In this document: in pieces, positions 22,470-56,600 of the stretch
How the letters are laid out: each line of letters begins with the position of its first letter
Numbering within the stretch: the stretch's first letter is position 1
IMG/VR virus record: IMGVR_UViG_3300050821_011467
Span: 10,261 to 74,260 of that record
Strand: one strand, 5' to 3'
From: a virus
Length of the DNA stretch: 64,000 nucleotides
Notes under the pieces: generated by a model
Database searches by the model: none
Told to the model about the DNA's origin: nothing
What the model saw: only the letters and a program-made list of their open reading frames with translations
Position numbers and translations under genes: made by a program

Positions 22470-22741
22470 GGGAGAAGCCGATGCTCAAACGCGCGACGAT
22501 CCGCCCGGCCCAGCCTCGCCCAAAGGTGCACGAAATTGGCGTCGGCGCGCATGTCATCGCCGCGGTACATGGCGACGGCAAGCTGCGCATCAACTGGCCC
22601 CAGGTTGAGGCTCTGGCTAGCGAGGCGGTTCCCCCTGCGAGTTTTGACATCATGCTCGACAGCGTGGCCGCGGCGCGAGTGCTCGCTCGCCTGCTGATCG
22701 TCGCCCGCAGCTCCGCGCAAGACGGATTAAATGCCCGCTAA
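22466..22741 (+). CDS. hypothetical protein
   Basis: ATGA coupled; last gene before the repeat array. Confidence 0.5.
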   Translation: MREKPMLKRATIRPAQPRPKVHEIGVGAHVIAAVHGDGKLRINWPQVEALASEAVPPASFDIMLDSVAAARVLARLLIVARSSAQDGLNAR

Positions 22742-22840
22742 GGCCGATTTGCCGGCCGCTGAGTGGCCTTGGCACCGGTGGTCGTGTGGGGGTTCCCCGT
22801 CCGGGCGAGAAACGCGCCCCACGGGCTCCGTAGGGGTTTC

Positions 22841-23394
22841 GAGCGAGCCATGAAGGTCGAGAGCACCATTTGAGGAGAGCGAGCCACTACAAGCGAGAGC
22901 ACCAGAACGTCGGAGCGATCCACATTCCGCGAGAGCACCAAAGATCGAGAGCGAGCGCGAGCCACTGAGTGAGAGAGTACCAAAGGCGTTGAGCGAGCCA
23001 AGGTCAATGAGAGCACCACATTCGGCGAGCGAGCCAGAATTGCTGAGAGCGCCATAATCGAGGAGCGAGCCACACCGCGGGAGAGCACCAAAAAGGCCGA
23101 GCGAGCCACGTTTGGTGAGAGCACCACAGAGGACGAGCGAGCCAGGAGGTCCGAGAGTACCAGGGGCCCAGAGCGAGCCAAAACGGAGGAGAGCACCAGG
23201 GGGCGTGAGCGAGCCATAACGGCAGAGAGCACCATGGTAATTGAGCGAGCCACTGAAGGTGAGAGCACCACTGAAGGAGGAGCGAGCCACGCGCCAGGAG
23301 AGCACCACGGAATTTGAGCGAGCCAAAGCGTACGAGAGCACCAGTGTCGTAGAGCGAGCCATAACGGCAGAGAGCACCATAAAAGCAGAGCGAG
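22841..23394 (+). ncRNA. TIGR-type dual-repeat guide-RNA array, 15 units of 36 bp
   Basis: Strict alternation GAGCGAGCCA-N8-GAGAGCACCA-N8 with variable 8-mers; one 6-bp repeat duplication (22949-22964) and one 9-nt spacer (23271-23279). Confidence 0.9.
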
Positions 23395-23401
23395 GAAAAA
23401 G

Positions 23402-24199
23402 ATGGCCAACATAGATCTTGAGCCGGTAAGGCGACTGAGTCGCGATATTCGCCAGGCGGCGCTGGTATTGGGCGACGAAGAAGCCCGCTACCTATGTGAT
23501 GCTTATTACATCATGCAGGACGACAGAAAGCGGACGTTCGCGCAGCAACGCACGCTCGGCGAGAACGCCGAGCCCAATCTCGTGATAGGATGGCTGGCCG
23601 ATCAATCGGCGACACTGGAAACTCAAATCAAGTCGGCATTGGATGTCTATACCAAAGGCCACGAAATGGGTTCTTGGATGCGGTCGATCTATGGCGTGGG
23701 GCCCGTGATCAGCGCCGGCCTGTTGGCGCATATCGACATTGAGAAATGTCCGACCGTGGGTCACATCTGGCAATTCGCCGGCATTGCCGGGGCTGGTCAA
23801 AAGCCCTGGGACAGGGGCACCAAGCGCCCCTTCAACGCCCAGCTCAAAACTTTATGCTGGAAGGCCGGGCAGTCGTTCATGAAGTTCTCCAATCAGGAGG
23901 AGTGCGTTTACGGGCGCCACTATCGAGAGCAAAAAGCCAAATACATTGCCAAGAATGATGCTGACGGCTTCCGCGATCGTGCATTAGAACGCGCCCCCAA
24001 GGTCGGCAAGACCACAGAAGCCTTTAAGCATTACAGCATCGGCAAGTTGCCGCCCGGCCATATCGACGCAATGGCTCGGCGCTGGGCTGTAAAGCTGTTC
24101 CTCGCGCATCTGCACAGTGAATGGCACCAGCGGCATTTTGGCAGGCCCGCGCCGCTACCGTATCCGATCGCCGTTCTTGGGCACGCCCATATAATCTAG
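23402..24199 (+). CDS. tasA: TasA-like Nop/IS110-C-terminal-domain RNA-guided DNA-binding protein with no nuclease domain
   Basis: Helical N-half, then SIYGVGPVISAGLLAHIDI...TVGHIWQFAGI and GHIDAMARRWAVKLFLAHL as in the IS110 Transposase_20/Nop fold; no DEDD RuvC, no HNH, no catalytic SG; embedded in the array. Confidence 0.85.
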   Translation: MANIDLEPVRRLSRDIRQAALVLGDEEARYLCDAYYIMQDDRKRTFAQQRTLGENAEPNLVIGWLADQSATLETQIKSALDVYTKGHEMGSWMRSIYGVGPVISAGLLAHIDIEKCPTVGHIWQFAGIAGAGQKPWDRGTKRPFNAQLKTLCWKAGQSFMKFSNQEECVYGRHYREQKAKYIAKNDADGFRDRALERAPKVGKTTEAFKHYSIGKLPPGHIDAMARRWAVKLFLAHLHSEWHQRHFGRPAPLPYPIAVLGHAHII

Positions 24200-24378
24200 C
24201 CAAATGGAGAGCACCAAAACGCACGAGCGAGCCACTACAACAGAGAGTACCAGGGGGCGTGAGCGAGCCACGCCGCAGGAGAGCACCACGGGATCTGAGC
24301 GAGCCAAGGGGTGGGAGAGCACCATTGGTCATGAGCGAGCCAAGGTTTGAGAGAGCACCAGAAACCCCGAGCGAGCCA
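24198..24378 (+). ncRNA. second part of the TIGR-type array, 4 full units plus a partial unit
   Basis: The same two 10-bp repeats with 8-nt spacers resume directly at the stop codon. Confidence 0.88.
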
Positions 24379-24402
24379 GCGCCCTATCGAGAACATGGGG
24401 AA

Positions 24403-24603
24403 ATGACGACCGAAAACGATGATCTAGCGTGGACAGAAGTTGCTCGTTTCTACCTCTACGAGGCGAGCATAACCGATGATTTCGACGAAAGGCGGAAGTT
24501 ACAGAAAAAAGCTGAATCCGCCTTGAGGAGATGCCTGAATCCCGAGACGGTTAGGATGCAGCTTACGGGAACTGTATATCGTGACGATATTCCACAGGAT
24601 TGA
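24403..24603 (+). CDS. hypothetical protein
   Basis: MTTENDDLAWTEVARF..., 66 aa directly after the array. Confidence 0.5.
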   Translation: MTTENDDLAWTEVARFYLYEASITDDFDERRKLQKKAESALRRCLNPETVRMQLTGTVYRDDIPQD

Positions 24604-24624
24604 CGCGGAATATTTTGCGGGTTA

Positions 24625-25197
24625 GTGGCTGCGGGTGTGACCCGCCGTCGCCTAAAAGCCCGCCGCGACCGCCGCGGGCGCCCCCGTAAAGCCACCGCCC
24701 GGCATCGTGCGACAACCGTTGCCGGCCGCGCCGCGCCGCCCGATCTGGGCACCGATGAGCTGCGGCGTCATCGGCTCGCCGCAACCACGCAGAGTGGACT
24801 GCCCGACGACCTGTTGGGCGTGCTCTATGGGCGCGCGGTCATCGATCTCGAGCAATACACCGCCGGCCGCGACTTTTCCGATGTCGTGCGTCTGGTGCGC
24901 CTCGGGCTCGGGCTGACCGAGGCCTCGCCGGCGGGGGCCTGGCGCAATATCCTCAGTGCCGCCAGCGCCGGCCGTGCCACGATTGTCGATGTGGCCTATC
25001 CCGGTGCCGACAGCGCGCGGCGCGCACTGATCCGCTTTCGCCGCGAACTCGGGCGGGCTAGCTGGGCCGCGGTCAATGCCGCTGCCGACAATATTTGGCC
25101 GATCGGTGAGTTTCCGCGGTTTGTGATGAATTTGCGGCCGGGGCTGGATTATCTTGCGGTGCGGTTGCCGCTGTCGAGCCGGCGGGTGGCGCGTTAA
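24625..25197 (+). CDS. DUF6456-like alphaproteobacterial phage protein
   Basis: LGVLYGRAVIDLEQYTAGRDF motif; last gene of the rightward early operon. Confidence 0.45.
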   Translation: MAAGVTRRRLKARRDRRGRPRKATARHRATTVAGRAAPPDLGTDELRRHRLAATTQSGLPDDLLGVLYGRAVIDLEQYTAGRDFSDVVRLVRLGLGLTEASPAGAWRNILSAASAGRATIVDVAYPGADSARRALIRFRRELGRASWAAVNAAADNIWPIGEFPRFVMNLRPGLDYLAVRLPLSSRRVAR

Positions 25198-25373
25198 ACT
25201 TCTATCAAAATAATAATATTTATTATCGAGCTTCGTGAATATTATTATTTTTTATCGGCGTAATTGTAAATTTTGCTTGACGCCCACAAGATATGCCTAA
25301 CTATGCGAATTAAAGGAGAATGCGGCGGCGTGCCTCCGCAGCTCCCTCAGCCGATAATCAGCTTAACGATCGC

Positions 25374-25595
25374 TCACGGCTTGCCTCCGGTGAACCCGCG
25401 CATGCCGTGGCGCATGGTTCCGTCAGGCTCGTGGTCTTCGTAGGCAGTTTCCATAGCCTCGATCTCGGCCTTGTGGTCGGCGTCGATGGCGGCAAATGCC
25501 TGGTTGATTTCGCGGATGACGGCGGCCCGCAAGGGCACATAGTCACCGCGGCTCTCGCTGACCGCGATATGCCAGATTTGCTCACCCAAGGTCAC
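25374..25595 (-). CDS. hypothetical small protein
   Basis: GTG start overlapping the upstream TGA; VTLGEQIWHIAV...GGKP. Confidence 0.45.
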   Translation of the reverse strand: MTLGEQIWHIAVSESRGDYVPLRAAVIREINQAFAAIDADHKAEIEAMETAYEDHEPDGTMRHGMRGFTGGKP

Positions 25596-25789
25596 GGCAG
25601 GCTGTCCCTGGCTGAGCGGCGGATGTAGAGCGGCACCTGGCGCCACAGCACCGTGGCGTCGAGTGACCGATCGGCCGCGCCCATGCGCCAGGCGCGCAGC
25701 TTGCGGGCGCCGCGTCTGGTGGGTTCGATGACATAGGTCTGGGCGCTGGCAATGTCGGTAACCATCAGCCAGGGCAGGGGCGTCGTCAC
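25592..25789 (-). CDS. hypothetical small protein
   Basis: GTG start inside the junction repeat. Confidence 0.5.
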   Translation of the reverse strand: MTTPLPWLMVTDIASAQTYVIEPTRRGARKLRAWRMGAADRSLDATVLWRQVPLYIRRSARDSLP

Positions 25790-28651: not shown

Positions 28652-28694
28652 ACGGGCAATTGCAGGCCGCCGCTGCGCTTTGGGGGCGAGGCCG

Positions 28695-30701
28695 ATGTTC
28701 CATCGCTACATCCCCCAGGTCCGATTGCACCTGTGGTGGCACGGCGCGCGTGATGCGGGTGAGTTTAAGGAGAGCGAGCACCCGCGCGAGAAGAGCAGCG
28801 GCAAATTCACCAAAGGGGGCGGTGGCGGCGGCTCTGGCGCAAAGGCGGTTCCGACGCCCCCGCAGATCAAGTCGACCCATGCGACCAATGTCGGCAAGCA
28901 GAAGCATTTGAACGCGCTGCATGCGCTGGCCGAGGCGGGCTCGTGGGAGCAGATCGCGGCGTACCCGACACCGGGCTCCAACACCTACGCCAAGATGGTG
29001 CAGAAGTACAAAGCCGACCTGCTCAAACATGCCCCGGAGGGCACGCCCGAGCCGGCCGAGATTAAGACGCCGGAACCAAAAGCCGAGCCGAAAGCGGCGG
29101 TCTATGGGCCGTTAAAAAACGCGATAAAGGCCAAGGGGTTTCAGCCAGTCGGTGGCGCCACGGCTTCAGGCAAAGAACTGTACAACCATCCTGAAACCGA
29201 CTTTAGCGTGATTGTGGAGCCGCCGACTAACCCAAGCAGCATGATGGGCTCGTCAGCCTGGACGCTCTACAGTCCGGACGGCGACGCGGTCGCCAACGAT
29301 TTCGGTTGGGTGTCGCTCTCGAACGCGATCTCGAAAGCAAACCAGGCCGCGGCCGCTCCAGCCGCGCCAAAGCACAATATTGCCGCCCCCGTCGATCTCG
29401 CCGGGATGGAGCAGACCGGCCCCAAGCTCGGCAGCAATCCAGGCGGCACCTACAAGGCTCCGGACGGCAAGGAGTATTACGTCAAGATCCCCAAGAGCGA
29501 CGATCACGCCAAGAATGAAATGCTGGCCGCTGCATTGTTCGGCGCAGCGGGCGGCAACACCCTGGTCTATCATCCGGTCAACACCCCCGACGGCAAGCTC
29601 GCAGTCGGCACCGAGAAGGAAAAGCTTGATAAGGACAATATCTCGCAGCTGAGCCCAGCGGAGAAACAACAGGCGCAGCGCGATTTCGCACTGCACGCCT
29701 GGCTCGCTAATTGGGATGCTGCCGGGCTGACCGGCGATAATGTCGGCACTGTCGGCAACACCGTCTTGCCGCTCGATTTTGGCGGGTCGTTGCTCTATCG
29801 CGCGCAAGGCGCCCCTAAGGGCGCAGCCTTTGGCAACCAGGCCGACGAGTGGACCACTCTGCGGAACTCGTCCAAGAACCCGTCATCGGCCAAGCTCTAC
29901 GGCGACATGACCAAGGAGCAACTGCTCGAATCGGCGCAGCGGCTCGGCTCGATCAGCAATCAGGATATCGTCGACCTCGTCAACCGGTTCGGCCCGGGCG
30001 ATCTAAAAGCCAAGGTTGAGCTTGCGCAGAAACTCGCCGAACGCCGCAACAACGTGATGCAACAGGCGGCTGCCGAGGCCAAGAAGCCCGCACCACCGCC
30101 GCCCGAGCCGCCCGACACGCCCAAGCCGCTGTCGTCCGCCGCTGCGGCGCCGCCCAAGCCGCACGCGGAAATCAAAGAGTTGATCGACAGCAAGCAGTTT
30201 AGCGCCGCTTACCACGCGCTTGAATCGCACGCGCCGAAGATCACCGATACCCAGGCGAGCGCTTTGAGCAATTACAAGGGCGCCTCCTACCAAGACATGA
30301 ATGAGTGCATGCGCAGCCAGGACAACTGCAAGGATGTCCGGGTAAAGGAGCTGCAGGATTGGCTGGCGCAGGCCAAAACGCCGATGCCGATGACAGTGTG
30401 GCGCCGGCTCAAAGGGGCATTCGCCGACGCGCTCTATTCGGTCGGCACGGTCGGCATGCGTTTTCAGGAGCGCGGCTTTCTGTCGACCTCGCTTGATCCG
30501 GGGCCGATGTCAACCTGGGGCAAACTGACGATGGAAATTCAGGCGCCGGAGGGAATGCCCGGCACCACCGTCAACAACAACACGGAAAGCGAAGTGCTGT
30601 TCAATCGCGGCATCCACCTGACGATCAAGAGCTTTGACCGCAACAAAAAGCACATGGTGGTGACGATGGACGCGGGTAAGCCGGGTGAGGAGTTGGGCTA
30701 G
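28695..30701 (+). CDS. fusion of a PI3K/HipA-like kinase-fold domain and a VIP2/C3-type ADP-ribosyltransferase
   Basis: N-terminal FKESEHPR...GKF; GSNPGG..YYVK..NEMLA..WLANWD...DNV...LDFGGSL; C-terminal VWRR / GFLSTS / ESEVL (R-S-E triad). Confidence 0.8.
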   Translation: MFHRYIPQVRLHLWWHGARDAGEFKESEHPREKSSGKFTKGGGGGGSGAKAVPTPPQIKSTHATNVGKQKHLNALHALAEAGSWEQIAAYPTPGSNTYAKMVQKYKADLLKHAPEGTPEPAEIKTPEPKAEPKAAVYGPLKNAIKAKGFQPVGGATASGKELYNHPETDFSVIVEPPTNPSSMMGSSAWTLYSPDGDAVANDFGWVSLSNAISKANQAAAAPAAPKHNIAAPVDLAGMEQTGPKLGSNPGGTYKAPDGKEYYVKIPKSDDHAKNEMLAAALFGAAGGNTLVYHPVNTPDGKLAVGTEKEKLDKDNISQLSPAEKQQAQRDFALHAWLANWDAAGLTGDNVGTVGNTVLPLDFGGSLLYRAQGAPKGAAFGNQADEWTTLRNSSKNPSSAKLYGDMTKEQLLESAQRLGSISNQDIVDLVNRFGPGDLKAKVELAQKLAERRNNVMQQAAAEAKKPAPPPPEPPDTPKPLSSAAAAPPKPHAEIKELIDSKQFSAAYHALESHAPKITDTQASALSNYKGASYQDMNECMRSQDNCKDVRVKELQDWLAQAKTPMPMTVWRRLKGAFADALYSVGTVGMRFQERGFLSTSLDPGPMSTWGKLTMEIQAPEGMPGTTVNNNTESEVLFNRGIHLTIKSFDRNKKHMVVTMDAGKPGEELG

Positions 30702-30928
30702 CGCTTGTCGTAATGGACGTGAATTTGCGGTCGGCGCCGGGCGCGATCCTGCTCGCGTTGCTTGTGCCGCCACAACTCGCCGAGGCTGACCTTCTCGCCG
30801 TCGGGCATCACCACGTCGACTTGGTCGGCATGCTCGGCGACAAAGCGGTTTTCATCGGTTGGCTCGGGCAACTGAGCCGGTGGGTCTTGGGCCAGATTTC
30901 TTCTCCTTCGTGTTAGAGATATAATCAT
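30698..30928 (-). CDS. small hypothetical protein
   Basis: Convergent with the ART gene; ends QIHVHYDKR; start uncertain. Confidence 0.45.
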   Translation of the reverse strand: MIISLTRRRRNLAQDPPAQLPEPTDENRFVAEHADQVDVVMPDGEKVSLGELWRHKQREQDRARRRPQIHVHYDKR

Positions 30929-31869
30929 TGCCTGCGAAAATTGCGACCGCGCCGCACGGGGCCGAGCGCATCGCGCTGCGCGCCACGGCTGCCTTGATAC
31001 CCTACGCCCGCAACCCGCGCACCCATTCTGACGATCAGGTGGCGCAGATCGCCGCTTCGATCAGGGAATTCGGTTTTACCAACCCGGTGCTGGTTGACGG
31101 CGCCGGCGGGATCATCGCCGGGCATGGCCGCGTGCTGGCGGCGCAGCAGCTCGGCCTGGCCGAAGTGCCGACCATCGCGCTGGGCTATCTGACGCCGATA
31201 CAGCGCCGTGCCTACGTCATTGCCGACAACCAGCTCGCGTTAAATGCCGGCTGGAACCTTGAGCTGCTGCGCCTCGAGATGCAGGCGCTCGACACCGATC
31301 ACTTTGACCTGTCGCTGACCGGGTTTGGCGAGGATCAGCTCGCCGATCTGTTGGCTGGGCGCGATCTGCCTGAATTCACCGGCGAGTTTGAGTGGTACAC
31401 GCCAGCAGAAATCATCGAACCTGCACGATCCGTCCTCGGTGGGATCGATCTAGACCCGGCTTCGAGCGAGACGGCACAACGCACAATCCGGGCGAAGCGG
31501 TACTACACCCGAGAGGATGACGGGCTGAGCAGGAAGTGGCGCGGGCGCGTCTGGCTCAATCCTCCGTATGCGGCCAATCTGGTCGGCAAGTTCGTCGCCA
31601 AGCTCTGCGAGCATGTTGCTGCGGGTGATGTTAAGGCCGCAATCATGCTGGTCGACGACAGAACCGATACTAGGTGGTTTCACGCGGCCGCTGTTGCGGC
31701 GGAGCGGATCTGCTTTCCTGCAGGTCGCATCCACTTCGTCCGTCCCGCGGGCGATCCGGGCGGGCCGCTGAACGGCTCGGCGCTGTTCTATTTTGGCGGT
31801 GCGCCCGATGCTTTCGAGGATGTCTTTGGCAAGATCGGCTTGGTGTTATGTCGGACCACTAAACCATGA
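30928..31869 (+). CDS. ParB-like domain fused to a phage N6-adenine DNA methyltransferase
   Basis: YARNPRTHS...FGFTNPVLVD...IIAGHGR; EWYTP...IDLDPAS...VWLNPPY. Confidence 0.9.
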   Translation: MPAKIATAPHGAERIALRATAALIPYARNPRTHSDDQVAQIAASIREFGFTNPVLVDGAGGIIAGHGRVLAAQQLGLAEVPTIALGYLTPIQRRAYVIADNQLALNAGWNLELLRLEMQALDTDHFDLSLTGFGEDQLADLLAGRDLPEFTGEFEWYTPAEIIEPARSVLGGIDLDPASSETAQRTIRAKRYYTREDDGLSRKWRGRVWLNPPYAANLVGKFVAKLCEHVAAGDVKAAIMLVDDRTDTRWFHAAAVAAERICFPAGRIHFVRPAGDPGGPLNGSALFYFGGAPDAFEDVFGKIGLVLCRTTKP

Positions 31870-32342
31870 AAAACCGTTTTAAGATCGAGCAAGTCGCCGA
31901 GGCGCTGCGCAAGAGTGCCGGCATTCAGGCGGGCGCCGCAAGAATTCTCGGCTGCACCCGTCAGGCCATCAGTCTATACGTCGCGCGCTATCCGCAATTG
32001 GCGCGGGTCGTCGACGACGCGGTAGAATTTAATCTCGACCTCGCCGAGACCAAGTTGATCGACGCGGTCAACCAGGGTGAGATGACCGCGATCAAATTTT
32101 ACTTAGAAACCAAGGGTAAGAGCCGCAACTACACCAGGCGCCATGAAGTCACTGGCGCCAACGGTGGTGCAATCGAGGTGACCGGTGCCCGAGACAGACT
32201 CATCGCAACCCTCGACGAAATGGCAGAACGTCTTGCCATCGGGAATGCCGAGCTTGGATCTATCACCAGCCGAGCGCCTGATTCAGGAGCTAAACCAAAC
32301 GGAGCGGGCGCAATTACTGAGGAAACAACTCAGCGACATTGA
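31866..32342 (+). CDS. terminase small subunit
   Basis: N-terminal HTH, AIKFYLETKGK..Y...EVTGANGGAIE; directly upstream of the large subunit. Confidence 0.75.
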   Translation: MKNRFKIEQVAEALRKSAGIQAGAARILGCTRQAISLYVARYPQLARVVDDAVEFNLDLAETKLIDAVNQGEMTAIKFYLETKGKSRNYTRRHEVTGANGGAIEVTGARDRLIATLDEMAERLAIGNAELGSITSRAPDSGAKPNGAGAITEETTQRH

Positions 32343-33585
32343 CGCGGCGGGGCTGGTTTATGATTGGCCGTTCTGGGCCCGCCCCTCGCAATTGCCGCCG
32401 GCTGACCCCGATTGGGTCTATTTTATGCTCATGGCCGGGCGCGGAAGCGGCAAAACCCGCAGCGGCGCCGAGTACATTCGAAACGTTAAAAATGTCGCTT
32501 CGCCAATTGCCCTGATCGGCGCCACCGCGGCTGACGTCCGCGACGTCATGGTGCGCGGCCCGGCGGGGTTGCTCTCCATTGCGCCGCCCGGTGACTATCC
32601 CGACTACCAGCCGAGCAACCGGCGGGTCGTGTGGAAGAACGGCGCCGAGGCGCTGATGTTCTCGGCCGAGGAGCCGGACCGGCTGCGGGGACCGCAGTTT
32701 GCAGCAGGTTGGTGCGACGAAATTTCGAGCTGGTCTTATCCGGACGACACCTGGTCAAACTTCCTGTTTGGGCTGCGCCTCGGCAAAAACCCGCGTGCGG
32801 TAATCACCACGACCCCGCGACCGATCAAGCTGGTCCGCGAGCTGATCGCCGACCCGCAATGCCGCGTCAGCCGGACCTCGAGCTACGCCAACCGCGCTCA
32901 CCTGGCGCCCGCATTCTTTTCAAAGATCATCGCCCGGTATGAGGGGACGAGGCTCGGCCGCCAGGAGATCTATGCCGAGCTCCTCGATGATGTGCCGGGT
33001 GCGCTATGGACTCGCGACAACCTCGAACGCGACCGGTTGCCGTTTGGCACCAAGCTTCCCGAGATGGCGCGCATCGTCATCGGTCTTGATCCCGCAGTCA
33101 CCAGCGGTGAAGACTCGGACGAGACCGGCATTATCGTTTGCGCCAAAGATTATCAGGGGCAAGCCTACGTGCTGGCCGACCGCAGCGGGCACTATCAGCC
33201 GACCGAGTGGGCGCGCGAGGCCGTCGCGCAGTACCACCATCCTGACCGCCCCGCCGACCGCATCATCGCCGAAATCAACAACGGCGGCGAAATGGTCGAG
33301 CACACCTTGCGAATGGTCGACCCCGGCGTCCCGGTCAAGACGGTGCACGCTTCGCGCGGCAAGGTCATTCGCGCCGAGCCGATATCCGCGCTCTACGAAA
33401 AGGGGCGCGTCCATCACGTCGGGTTTTTCCCGCTGCTCGAAGATTCAATGACGAGTTTCACGGTCGACTACGACCGGTCGGTCAATGGTTCGCCGGATCG
33501 AATTGATGCTCTGGTTTGGGCCTTAACCGAGCTGTTGGTCGAGGACGCGGGTAATGCCTATCTCGAATCCTGGGGAAGGTGGTAG
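32245..33585 (+). CDS. terL: terminase large subunit
   Basis: AGRGSGKT Walker A; LRGPQF...WCDE; TTTP; IGLDPA; SPDRIDA. Confidence 0.95.
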   Translation: MPSLDLSPAERLIQELNQTERAQLLRKQLSDIDAAGLVYDWPFWARPSQLPPADPDWVYFMLMAGRGSGKTRSGAEYIRNVKNVASPIALIGATAADVRDVMVRGPAGLLSIAPPGDYPDYQPSNRRVVWKNGAEALMFSAEEPDRLRGPQFAAGWCDEISSWSYPDDTWSNFLFGLRLGKNPRAVITTTPRPIKLVRELIADPQCRVSRTSSYANRAHLAPAFFSKIIARYEGTRLGRQEIYAELLDDVPGALWTRDNLERDRLPFGTKLPEMARIVIGLDPAVTSGEDSDETGIIVCAKDYQGQAYVLADRSGHYQPTEWAREAVAQYHHPDRPADRIIAEINNGGEMVEHTLRMVDPGVPVKTVHASRGKVIRAEPISALYEKGRVHHVGFFPLLEDSMTSFTVDYDRSVNGSPDRIDALVWALTELLVEDAGNAYLESWGRW

Positions 33586-53626: not shown

Positions 53627-56600
53627 CGCAGCGGTCCTAAAGGAGTTCCTTGTCGGGGTCGGCTACAAGGTCGATGAATCCAGCCAGGATCGCTTTACCA
53701 AGGGCCTGGCGGGTGCCGGTGCCGCGGTAGCTAAGGTTCAGCAGGGGGTCCAACAGTTCGGCAAGTCAATCGCCGATCTGGGGAAAAGGCTGGTCGAGCA
53801 CGGTGAGCGACCGGTGCGCCAATACGAGGAGGCCACCCGCAAGATCGGCATCAGCACCGAGAAAGTGCTAAAAAGCGTGGTCGAACTGGGGGCCGCAGCG
53901 GTCGCCACCGGCACCGCTTTTGTCGGCGCTATGCGCTCGGTCGCGGTGCAGTACGAGCAGCTCTATTACGTCGCCCAGCGCATTGGGACCTCGGTCGAGG
54001 ACCTCAACAAAATGCGCTTTGCCGCCGATCGGGCGGGCTTGGGCGCTGATGAATTTACGGCCTCGCTTGAGGCCCTCAATCACACCATGCGCGCCTCGCC
54101 GGGGCTCAAGGTGCTGGTCGACAGCTGGATCGGAGCCGATTGGGACACGCTCAAAAACAAATCCGAGGGGCAGATCAAGGTCCTCGAGCATTTGCGCCAG
54201 CTCCCGCGCTATATTGCCTACGAGTGGGCCAGCAAATTCGGCATTTCGGCCAAGCTGCTCGATCAGTACTTCGCTGATCCTGAAGCGTATCGCAAAGCCA
54301 GGGAAGAAGCCGATCGGATTTTTAAAATAATCGGTGTCAATCAAAAGGAGCTAGCCGAAAAATCCGTCACCTTTATGCAGACCTTGGGGACCTTGGCTAA
54401 AGAGGTCGGCGGGATATTCCAGCAAGCCTTTATCGAGTCCTTTCCGCAACTGATGGGGTATTTCAAGACATTCCAGGGGATGCTCGAAGGGCTGCTGCGA
54501 TGGAACGAGGCGCACCCCGGCATGGCGATGGTCGAGGCCATCGCTGCGGCCGGGGTTGGCATCGTCGGGCTGCTCGGGTTGCTCGGCAAGCTGCGTTGGG
54601 CGCTGTTTACGCTGACCCCGGTCACCGCCGCGCTGGCGGGTGCCGCCTATCTGATCATCAAGAACTGGGACCGGGTCGGTCCCTTTCTCAAAAAGCACTT
54701 TGACGACATTTACGCAGCATTCCAGCGGAGCCCCCGAGAAGGGTTCCGGGCGCTGTGGGAAGCGGCCAAGGAGACCTTCTCGGCGATCGCCACTTACGTC
54801 AAAGACGAGTTCCGGAAGATCGACTGGCAGGAGGTCGGCAAGGTTGCTGGCGATGCTTTTACCGCGGCCTGGAAGGCAGCGCTGGGGGTCGGGAAATGGC
54901 TGGAAGACCTAATCGACGAGCAACTCAAAAAGATCGATTTCCCAGCATTGGGGTCAAAACTCGGTACCGCGCTCGGAAAGGCTTTAGAGGAAGCCTTTAC
55001 GGGACAGATCGACAGTGCCGATCCTACGTCAGTGCTGCTGAAAAAGTTGGGTGAAGCGAATGCAAGGGTTGTGAAGATAGGTCAGGAGTTTATGGCTGCG
55101 TTTTTCCGCGGCATGTGGGAGCAACTCAAGAACGATCCAACCCTGGTGGCGATCGAAGAGGCTTTTGACAAAGTATTTGGCTGGCCTGGGCGAATACACG
55201 ATCGTCTGTTTGGCAAAACCCCAGCAGCAGCGGCACCCGCACCCGCACCCGCAGCACCGGCTCCAGCACGCGCCCCGGCGGTTGAGGCAGAACCGCCTCG
55301 CCCCGAACGCAAACCCGAACCGCCAGCGGCTCTCGAAGATCGGTTTGGTGGCCCATCATGGCAGATTGGGCCGCCGCCTCCCGGCATGACCGATGTGCAA
55401 ATGCCAGGTGGTCACACGGTCCAACTGCCCCAGCTCAACGTCCCGCACATGCAGCATGGCGGCATCGTGCGCGCCGACCTGCACGAGGGCGAGATGGTCT
55501 TGCCGCTGTGGATCTCGCGCGGTCTGCAGGCACTGATCAGCGGCGGGCAGAAGGTGGCGAGCAATGTCGGGGGCGCGCTCAGCTTTGCCAGCGAGCGGGT
55601 CGGCGAAACGCTCGATGAGTGGCTAACCGGGACCAGCGGAAGAATGCCGCAAGTCAAGGTTGGGAATGTTGACGACATCATCGACGGGATGCGCGATCTC
55701 GAGGACGAGCGCGCGGCCGAGGGGAAGCCGACCAGTGCCACTGTTCAAGGTCCGCCCGAGGCGCGCCGCCGCCGCGGAGCTGGGGGTGGTGGTGATAGCG
55801 GTGAAATGCCCGGCGATCTTAACCTCGCCGGCAGCGAGTTCCTCGCCTCGCAGCGCAAACAAGCCAGTGAGGAGCTCGAGAAAAGCCCGGAATTGATGGC
55901 TCGTTTGGCGGCAATCGTCAGCCTCGAAGCGTCAAGTGCCAGGGGGCGAATAGCAATCGCTGAAAGCCTGTTCAACCGCATCGCAGAATTCGGCGGCACG
56001 GTAGAGGGCCGTACTGGCGGCGGCAAAGGCAGCTTCTATGGCCCGGTGCGCAGGGGCGAAGTGGCGCCCCGTGTTCAAGAGTTGCTGAAAGATCCGCAAC
56101 GGTTGGAAGCGCTCAAAAAACTGATCAGGCAAGCATACAGCAGCAATATCACCAAGGGCTATACTGACCAGGGCAGCATTGGCGCGACCGGCATCCCTGA
56201 TCCGAATTACTATACAGGCGGCTCTGGCATAACCATTGACGGCGAGCGCCATAACTACTACCTGGGCGACACACCAGAACATCGCGCATGGCGCGAACGG
56301 CAACAGGCGCAGGTCGACAAGAGCGCTTCGGTGCCGCCCACAGCCGTGCCCGGCGCGGCACTGGTTCCCGGCGGGATGCGACCGCGTAGCGCGCTCACCC
56401 TGCCAATGCCAAACATTCCGCGCGACATGCCATGGGACCGGATCGGCGCCGCCTCGGCGCGGCTCGACCGCATCCAGCCGCTGACGATGAACGGTGGTGG
56501 CACCACCACCAACGAGGGCAATCGCGACGTTACGATGAACATCACCAACCATATCACGGTCGCCGGCGGCTCCAATGGAGCGGCTGAGACTGGACGTCAG

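Follow-up and report, generated by a model that had tools for sequence, protein, structure and literature searches.

The locus described here is, with a probability of about 0.9, a dual-repeat TIGR-TasA system of an uncultured tailed phage that acts as an RNA-guided DNA binder without cutting its target. This reading is carried by the anatomy of the repeat array, the family membership and fold of the TasA protein, its lack of a nuclease domain, the conservation of its processing residues, the phage context and the absence of self-targets. The window, i.e. the whole stretch of DNA analyzed (64,000 bp), corresponds to bases 10261-74260 of a 74,260-bp IMG/VR record, which is classed as complete and carries direct terminal repeats of 97 bp. 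Positions are those of the window unless stated otherwise, and the features of the locus are collected in Table 1.

Table 1. Features of the tasA locus, in window coordinates.
Feature	Position	Strand	Basis or composition
Upstream TIGR array	22841..23397	+	15 units: edge repeat GAGCGAGCCA, spacer A of 8 nt, loop repeat GAGAGCACCA, spacer B of 8 nt; 3'-truncated edge repeat last
Irregular 16-nt edge repeat GAGCGAGCGCGAGCCA, with 6 nt inserted, at the junction of units 3 and 4	22949..22964	+	
Spacer B of unit 12, the sole 9-nt spacer	23271..23279	+	
Final upstream edge repeat, 3'-truncated, GAGCGAG	23388..23397	+	Read from sequence
tasA, 265 aa, solo Nop-domain Tas protein without nuclease domain	23402..24199	+	NF052498, PDB matches, AlphaFold model, phrog_4285
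Codons Y254 to H261, C-terminal loop; putative counterpart of the SpTasH Y289/H296 pre-tigRNA processing pair	24161..24184	+	
Downstream TIGR array	24198..24378	+	AGCCA half edge repeat over the tasA stop codon, partial unit, 4 full units, closing edge repeat

Repeat arrays flanking tasA

Two 10-nt repeats, GAGCGAGCCA (R1) and GAGAGCACCA (R2), were read and parsed on the + strand of 22841-24378, interleaved with 8-nt variable spacers in a unit layout of 10-8-10-8 nt; Tandem Repeats Finder returned 36-nt periods in both array stretches. In the upstream array (22841-23397) R2 is present 15 times with R1 on each side of every copy, and the downstream array (24207-24378) consists of a unit without a full 5' R1, followed by four full units and a closing R1. 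Parsing thus confirmed the 19 full units counted in the preliminary description, 15 before and four (plus a partial unit) after a 265-aa gene, as well as its observation that each repeat opens with GAG and closes with CCA and that the 8-mers vary. The GAG start and the CCA end correspond to box D and box C, respectively, and both repeats fit the published rule that box D and box C motifs co-vary between edge and loop repeats. R1 was designated the edge repeat and R2 the loop repeat because R1 contains the GCGAGCCA core of the TaTIGR and SpTIGR edge repeats (the former being TGCGAGCCA).

The pattern R1-N8-R2, with up to three mismatches allowed, occurs 19 times in the 74,260-bp genome, in all 19 cases at the tasA locus on the + strand. 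Over the whole genome the same pattern gave no match on the - strand and the reversed control pattern gave none at all. No dispersed arrays were found outside the tasA locus by the whole-genome motif search; beyond the locus, R1 and R2 10-mers occur only as scattered chance matches with 1-2 mismatches. The arrays that hold the 19 units begin or end within 8 nt of the ends of tasA and share its strand (+). Their inner ends are the GAGCGAG repeat upstream and the AGCCA half repeat downstream, their outer ends are full repeats, and no terminator-like site was found on the + strand. The GAGGA ribosome-binding site of tasA coincides with the end of the truncated GAGCGAG repeat, 7 nt before the ATG at 23402. 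A consensus scan of the + strand between 22000 and 25300 yielded no promoter or terminator, and no Rfam match was obtained between 22000 and 25000. Published TIGR arrays often have an intrinsic terminator at their end.

Family membership, fold and processing loop of TasA

The protein matched the NCBIfam equivalog NF052498 (TIGR-Tas system protein) at 207.5 bits (E 2.3e-61; cut-off 100 bits) over residues 28-241 and profile positions 1-214 of 215, and this match was reproduced in the genome-wide search. Among PDB sequences the best match was TaTasR (9mty, 8e-11), with SpTasH at 1e-7 and IS621 at 0.011. An AlphaFold2 model computed from 99 homologues (pLDDT 90.2, pTM 0.86) is helical throughout, the helices starting at residue 14, and a Foldseek search with this model placed TasH and TasR chains at all of ranks 1-10, with the bridge recombinases IS621 and ISCro4 next. 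The IS110 model NF033542 scored 16.4 bits against a cut-off of 140, over profile positions 196-310 only, and Pfam Transposase_20 gave a weak match below cut-off (E 0.0034). In PHROGs the protein belongs to phrog_4285, a family labeled "transposase".

Pfam found no nuclease domain in the protein. Just 27 residues lie N-terminal to the Tas profile and the array abuts the gene at both ends, so that neither an HNH nor a RuvC domain could be accommodated; the 265-aa protein was therefore named TasA. The NCBIfam name "RNA-guided endonuclease" should not be taken to mean DNA cleavage by this TasA. The HMM comparison and structure prediction that had been proposed at the outset returned a Nop fold, with Tas matches ahead of those to IS110. 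Other elements of the preliminary description of the protein were upheld as well: the GVGPVISAGLL and IWQFAGI motifs are located in ORF 23402-24199; the reported lack of a RuvC DEDD domain, an HNH domain and a catalytic serine agrees with the Pfam result, the NF033542 score and the all-helical model; and the identification as a phage TIGR array with a nuclease-less Nop-domain TasA is supported by the NF052498 score, the Foldseek ranking and the phage genome.

In SpTasH, the guide precursor is cut by Y289 and H296 in a C-terminal loop. This loop reads LPY....LGH in TasA (Y254 and H261) and PLY....LGH in SpTasH (taken as the translation from the Salicola phage record), with an identical spacing of 7 residues. 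H261 is present in 99 of 99 relatives; at position 254, 88 of the 99 have Y and 10 have F. Judged by sequence, TasA keeps the Tyr/His guide-processing pair of SpTasH and is a putative processing enzyme.

Three other explanations of the locus were weighed against these results. Two - strand frames are open over the entire upstream array (ORFs 22727-23380 and 22738-23412, encoding 217 and 224 aa), and a period of 36 nt is divisible by three, as would be expected if the array encoded a 12-residue repeat protein; this is given almost no credence, because shuffling the letters within spacers leaves a fully open - frame in 37% of trials, two overlapping frames cannot both code, and variation is confined to the 8-nt blocks instead of falling on codon third positions. 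Related arrays moreover have 37-nt periods (locus L002) or stops in six frames (L010 and L017). The repeats themselves and the purine richness of the spacers account for the open frames, which relatives do not conserve. Descent from an IS110-family element, in which a bridge-RNA recombinase has lost its catalytic domain and the repeats are debris, would account for the sub-threshold Transposase_20 match, the PHROGs label and the rank of IS621 and ISCro4 as next-best folds after Tas. It is likewise extremely improbable, since the IS110 model falls far below its cut-off, a DEDD domain is absent, the Tas model and Tas structures fit the protein much more closely, the edge and loop repeats form an ordered array, and 2,489 homologues of similar length (E ≤ 1e-10, in a large protein collection) mark a maintained family.

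An unlikely explanation, which deserves somewhat more weight than the other two, is that TasA only finds the target and that a separate phage or host nuclease is recruited to cut the bound DNA, making the outcome destruction instead of silencing. Consistent with it are the NCBIfam family name, the cleavage of DNA by relatives with fused HNH or RuvC domains, and the eight small ORFs beside tasA (six upstream, two downstream), none of which has a Pfam match. No nuclease family was detected in these six upstream and two downstream ORFs, however, the published survey reports TasA to be without clear protein associations, and purified TasA complexes bind and repress but do not cut (10.64898/2026.09.09.750476). 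As an annotation matter, the 217- and 224-aa ORFs running through the array on the - strand (22727-23412) are by-products of the repeats that automatic annotation is likely to call as genes.

Phage genome, related loci and target searches

The source is an uncultured tailed phage, soil-type and high-GC. PHROGs assignments include structural and packaging genes (large terminase, portal, head protease, major head protein, tail sheath and tape measure), genes for RecT, an exonuclease and a DnaB-like helicase, and a ParB-methyltransferase fusion; a search for a tyrosine integrase gave no match. Because the genome is complete, has terminal repeats and encodes head and tail proteins, the TIGR-Tas locus is phage-encoded. 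A host search detected no relatives of TasA or of the portal protein among genome contigs. The phage also carries a tRNA-Thr gene (anticodon TGT) at 2365-2441 on the - strand.

No parB-like gene lies in an operon with tasA, the arrangement that defines the TasA-TasParB subtype. The sole ParB_N gene (30928-31866, +) encodes a protein that joins a ParB N-terminal domain to a Dam-type DNA adenine methyltransferase, and is located 6.7 kb downstream of tasA, next to the packaging genes; as it shares no operon with tasA, it does not correspond to the TasParB partner described in the literature. Directly upstream of the ParB-methyltransferase and packaging genes, 28680-30698 (+) encodes a 673-aa protein without a PHROG match, the C-terminal 150 residues of which match the ADP-ribosyltransferase exoenzyme family (PF03496, E 6.5e-15, above cut-off). 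The large-terminase profile matched ORF 32185-33582 (+) mainly in its C-terminal half, and a 158-aa ORF (31866-32342) overlaps the start of this ORF; the terminase start may be misplaced or a frameshift may be present in 31866-33585.

The closest homologues of TasA (P0002-P0007) are 79-88% identical to it. The 23 related loci that were collected (five in IMG/VR, 18 in metagenomes) include several cases of one contig present twice. Thirteen distinct loci have an array, in every case on the tas strand, with the same repeat types and mostly 8-nt spacers; their repeats are GAGCGAGCCA or near variants of it, together with GAGAGNACCA, and the GAG/GA...CC(A) pattern is retained in both. Spacers are common only to copies of one contig, except for four that L007 and L023 have in common, and none is shared with the array of this phage. 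One locus, L013 (Ga0210399_10153992), is the same phage from another sample and equals window positions 23803-25703, with three substitutions in 1,901 bp (24351, 24358 and 24364). All three fall in the last array unit, where boxes D and C of the loop repeat are disrupted and spacer B is altered.

Targets were sought as sites in which spacer A precedes the reverse complement of spacer B, a rule read off the TaTasR tigRNA1 and the synthetic target published with it. In the 74-kb genome with the array masked, no site was found with two or fewer mismatches (1.1 expected), and 23 sites were found with three mismatches (14.8 expected), none a convincing self-target. Exact 16-mers of seven of the 20 guides (units 12, 15, 2, 5, 8, 14 and 19) were searched against IMG/VR and gave only chance-level matches, with no natural target among them: 1 to 31 matches were returned per guide, no contig matched two guides, and a second near-match was present in one locus family only (G001). 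The 31 matches of unit 2 are groups of redundant contigs in each of which the 16-mer reads YKPTF in high-GC codons, and are ascribed to codon usage for that reason. G001 (IMGVR_UViG_3300010348_002226) is a 69-kb phage of 68.6% GC in which guide 2 has an exact site, guide 9 has a site with one mismatch, and four further sites have two mismatches; the six lie at 55365, 50943, 44385, 66155, 34839 and 4976 of that genome. These matches are marginal, with P of about 0.06-0.09 each, and barely exceed chance once the way in which G001 was picked is allowed for. Natural targets of most systems in the published survey were likewise not found (10.64898/2026.09.09.750476).

Proposed mode of action, array evolution and comparison with known systems

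For transcription, processing, guide boundaries, DNA binding and repression, the following model is built by analogy with published relatives. Array and tasA would be read on the + strand, probably as a single transcript with neighboring + strand genes. A TasA dimer would hold each unit through boxes D (GAG, at the start) and C (CCA, at the end) of its edge and loop repeats, and the precursor would be cut inside the edge repeat by the C-terminal Tyr254/His261 loop of TasA. The predicted 36-nt guide is AGCCA-A8-GAGAGCACCA-B8-GAGCG, the ends of which were set by analogy, as the synthetic tigRNA1 of TaTasR starts with AGCCA and ends with UGCG. Such a guide would direct the dimer to a 16-bp DNA site composed of spacer A and the reverse complement of spacer B, each spacer pairing with one strand. 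The TasA complex would then bind and bend the DNA and block transcription or replication; because TasA has no nuclease domain, it would do so without cutting. The most likely targets would be the host or a competing mobile element, as no target is present in the phage's own genome. Binding without cutting, already suggested in the preliminary description, would agree with published work in which TasA exerts RNA-guided, reversible repression without cleavage (10.64898/2026.09.09.750476). The only experimental result for any dual-repeat TasA is the binding of 36-nt RNAs by FpTasA (PMC12045711), and the repression experiments were done with MbTasA of a Minisyncoccota bacterium, outside the dual-repeat clade of this phage (10.64898/2026.09.09.750476).

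Several spacers of the array resemble one another. Two pairs are identical (0.05 expected) and 13 pairs are alike at six or more of eight positions (3.8 expected). Unit 17 is mosaic-like, its spacer A resembling that of unit 2 and its spacer B being that of unit 10, and the block of units 8-11 is similar to that of units 12-15 (P about 0.013). When the array was pooled with 12 related loci, about 0.3% of non-adjacent within-locus spacer pairs were identical. TIGR arrays may perhaps gain guides without acquisition machinery, by duplication and recombination of whole units and later point mutation within the 8-nt spacers, a suggestion offered with some doubt, toward which the confinement of the L013 differences to one array unit was also counted.

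Within single units, spacers A and B of unit 12 are nearly identical, so that its predicted target is a near-palindrome; 14 of 16 positions are self-complementary in the target of unit 12 and 12 of 16 in that of unit 15. Palindromic targets were rejected as a rule, as spacers A and B were no more alike than random pairs in the 83 units of the array and its relatives. In five of 20 units between 22851 and 24368, spacers A and B end in dinucleotides that are reverse complements of each other (1.1 expected; P 0.005, uncorrected), which, if true, could mean a 14-bp target with a 2-bp overlap. Complementary 3' dinucleotides were also rejected as a rule of the family, being found in two of 67 units of the relatives (2.8 expected).

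[quoted passage not shown] Among the closest known systems is SpTIGR-TasH of Salicola phage CGphi29 (NC_020844; PDB 9w03, 9w04 and 21kl; PMC12045711, PMC13421893), in which the array is AAGCGAGCCA-N8-AAGACAACCA-N8. Both systems belong to tailed phages and have 36-nt units of 10-8-10-8 nt on the tas strand, their edge repeats are similar (AAGCGAGCCA and GAGCGAGCCA), and CCA ends both repeats in each. SpTasH and TasA share the Nop fold, among the best Foldseek matches, and the Tyr...LGH loop with identical spacing, at about 25% identity over 140 residues. SpTasH is in addition a DNA-cutting enzyme, with an HNH nuclease of about 110 residues at its N terminus, whereas TasA starts at the coiled-coil and Nop part. 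The SpTIGR array lies only downstream of its gene and ends in a terminator hairpin; here arrays lie on both sides and no terminator was found.

TaTIGR-TasR (9mty) shares the GCGAGCCA edge core, the implied cut point and the target rule, but differs in its active N-terminal RuvC domain, its 9-nt repeats and spacers, and its archaeal origin. FpTasA of Flavonifractor plautii (PMC12045711) is likewise a solo Nop-domain effector, the commonest Tas architecture (PMC12045711), with a dual-repeat array and 36-nt guides; this likeness is by description, and FpTIGR has 9+9-nt spacers in place of 8+8. The nuclease-free MbTasA (10.64898/2026.09.09.750476) and PlTasA (10.64898/2026.08.11.744272) serve as functional models for TasA: MbTasA bound target DNA and reversibly silenced transcription (10.64898/2026.09.09.750476), and PlTasA bound target DNA in EMSA and its structure was solved with DNA (10.64898/2026.08.11.744272). 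TasA differs from both in being of the dual-repeat class and in retaining the loop. The IS110/IS621 recombinases have a homologous RNA-binding Nop-like domain, but also a DEDD RuvC-like domain, a catalytic serine, a single structured bridge RNA and mobility, none of which is found here.

These comparisons do not bear out two suggestions of novelty. Spacers of 8+8 nt had been thought possibly undescribed, but the SpTIGR array has a 16-nt split spacer (PMC12045711), seen as 8+8 in the CGphi29 array; a gene placed inside its array had been thought so too, but arrays flanking tas on both sides were already published, and a 2026 survey of 6,685 arrays reports them upstream, downstream or on both sides of tas (10.64898/2026.09.09.750476). 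RNA-guided DNA binders of this type entered the literature in 2025-2026. The locus is a genuine, intact and ordinary TIGR-TasA system and leaves knowledge of the family unchanged. It provides a clean example of dual-repeat TasA from a complete genome, with 19 guides, processing residues and a tight array-gene-array layout, and its internally related spacers are a small data point on array evolution. TasA could also serve as a compact dual-repeat effector for tests of programmable repression.
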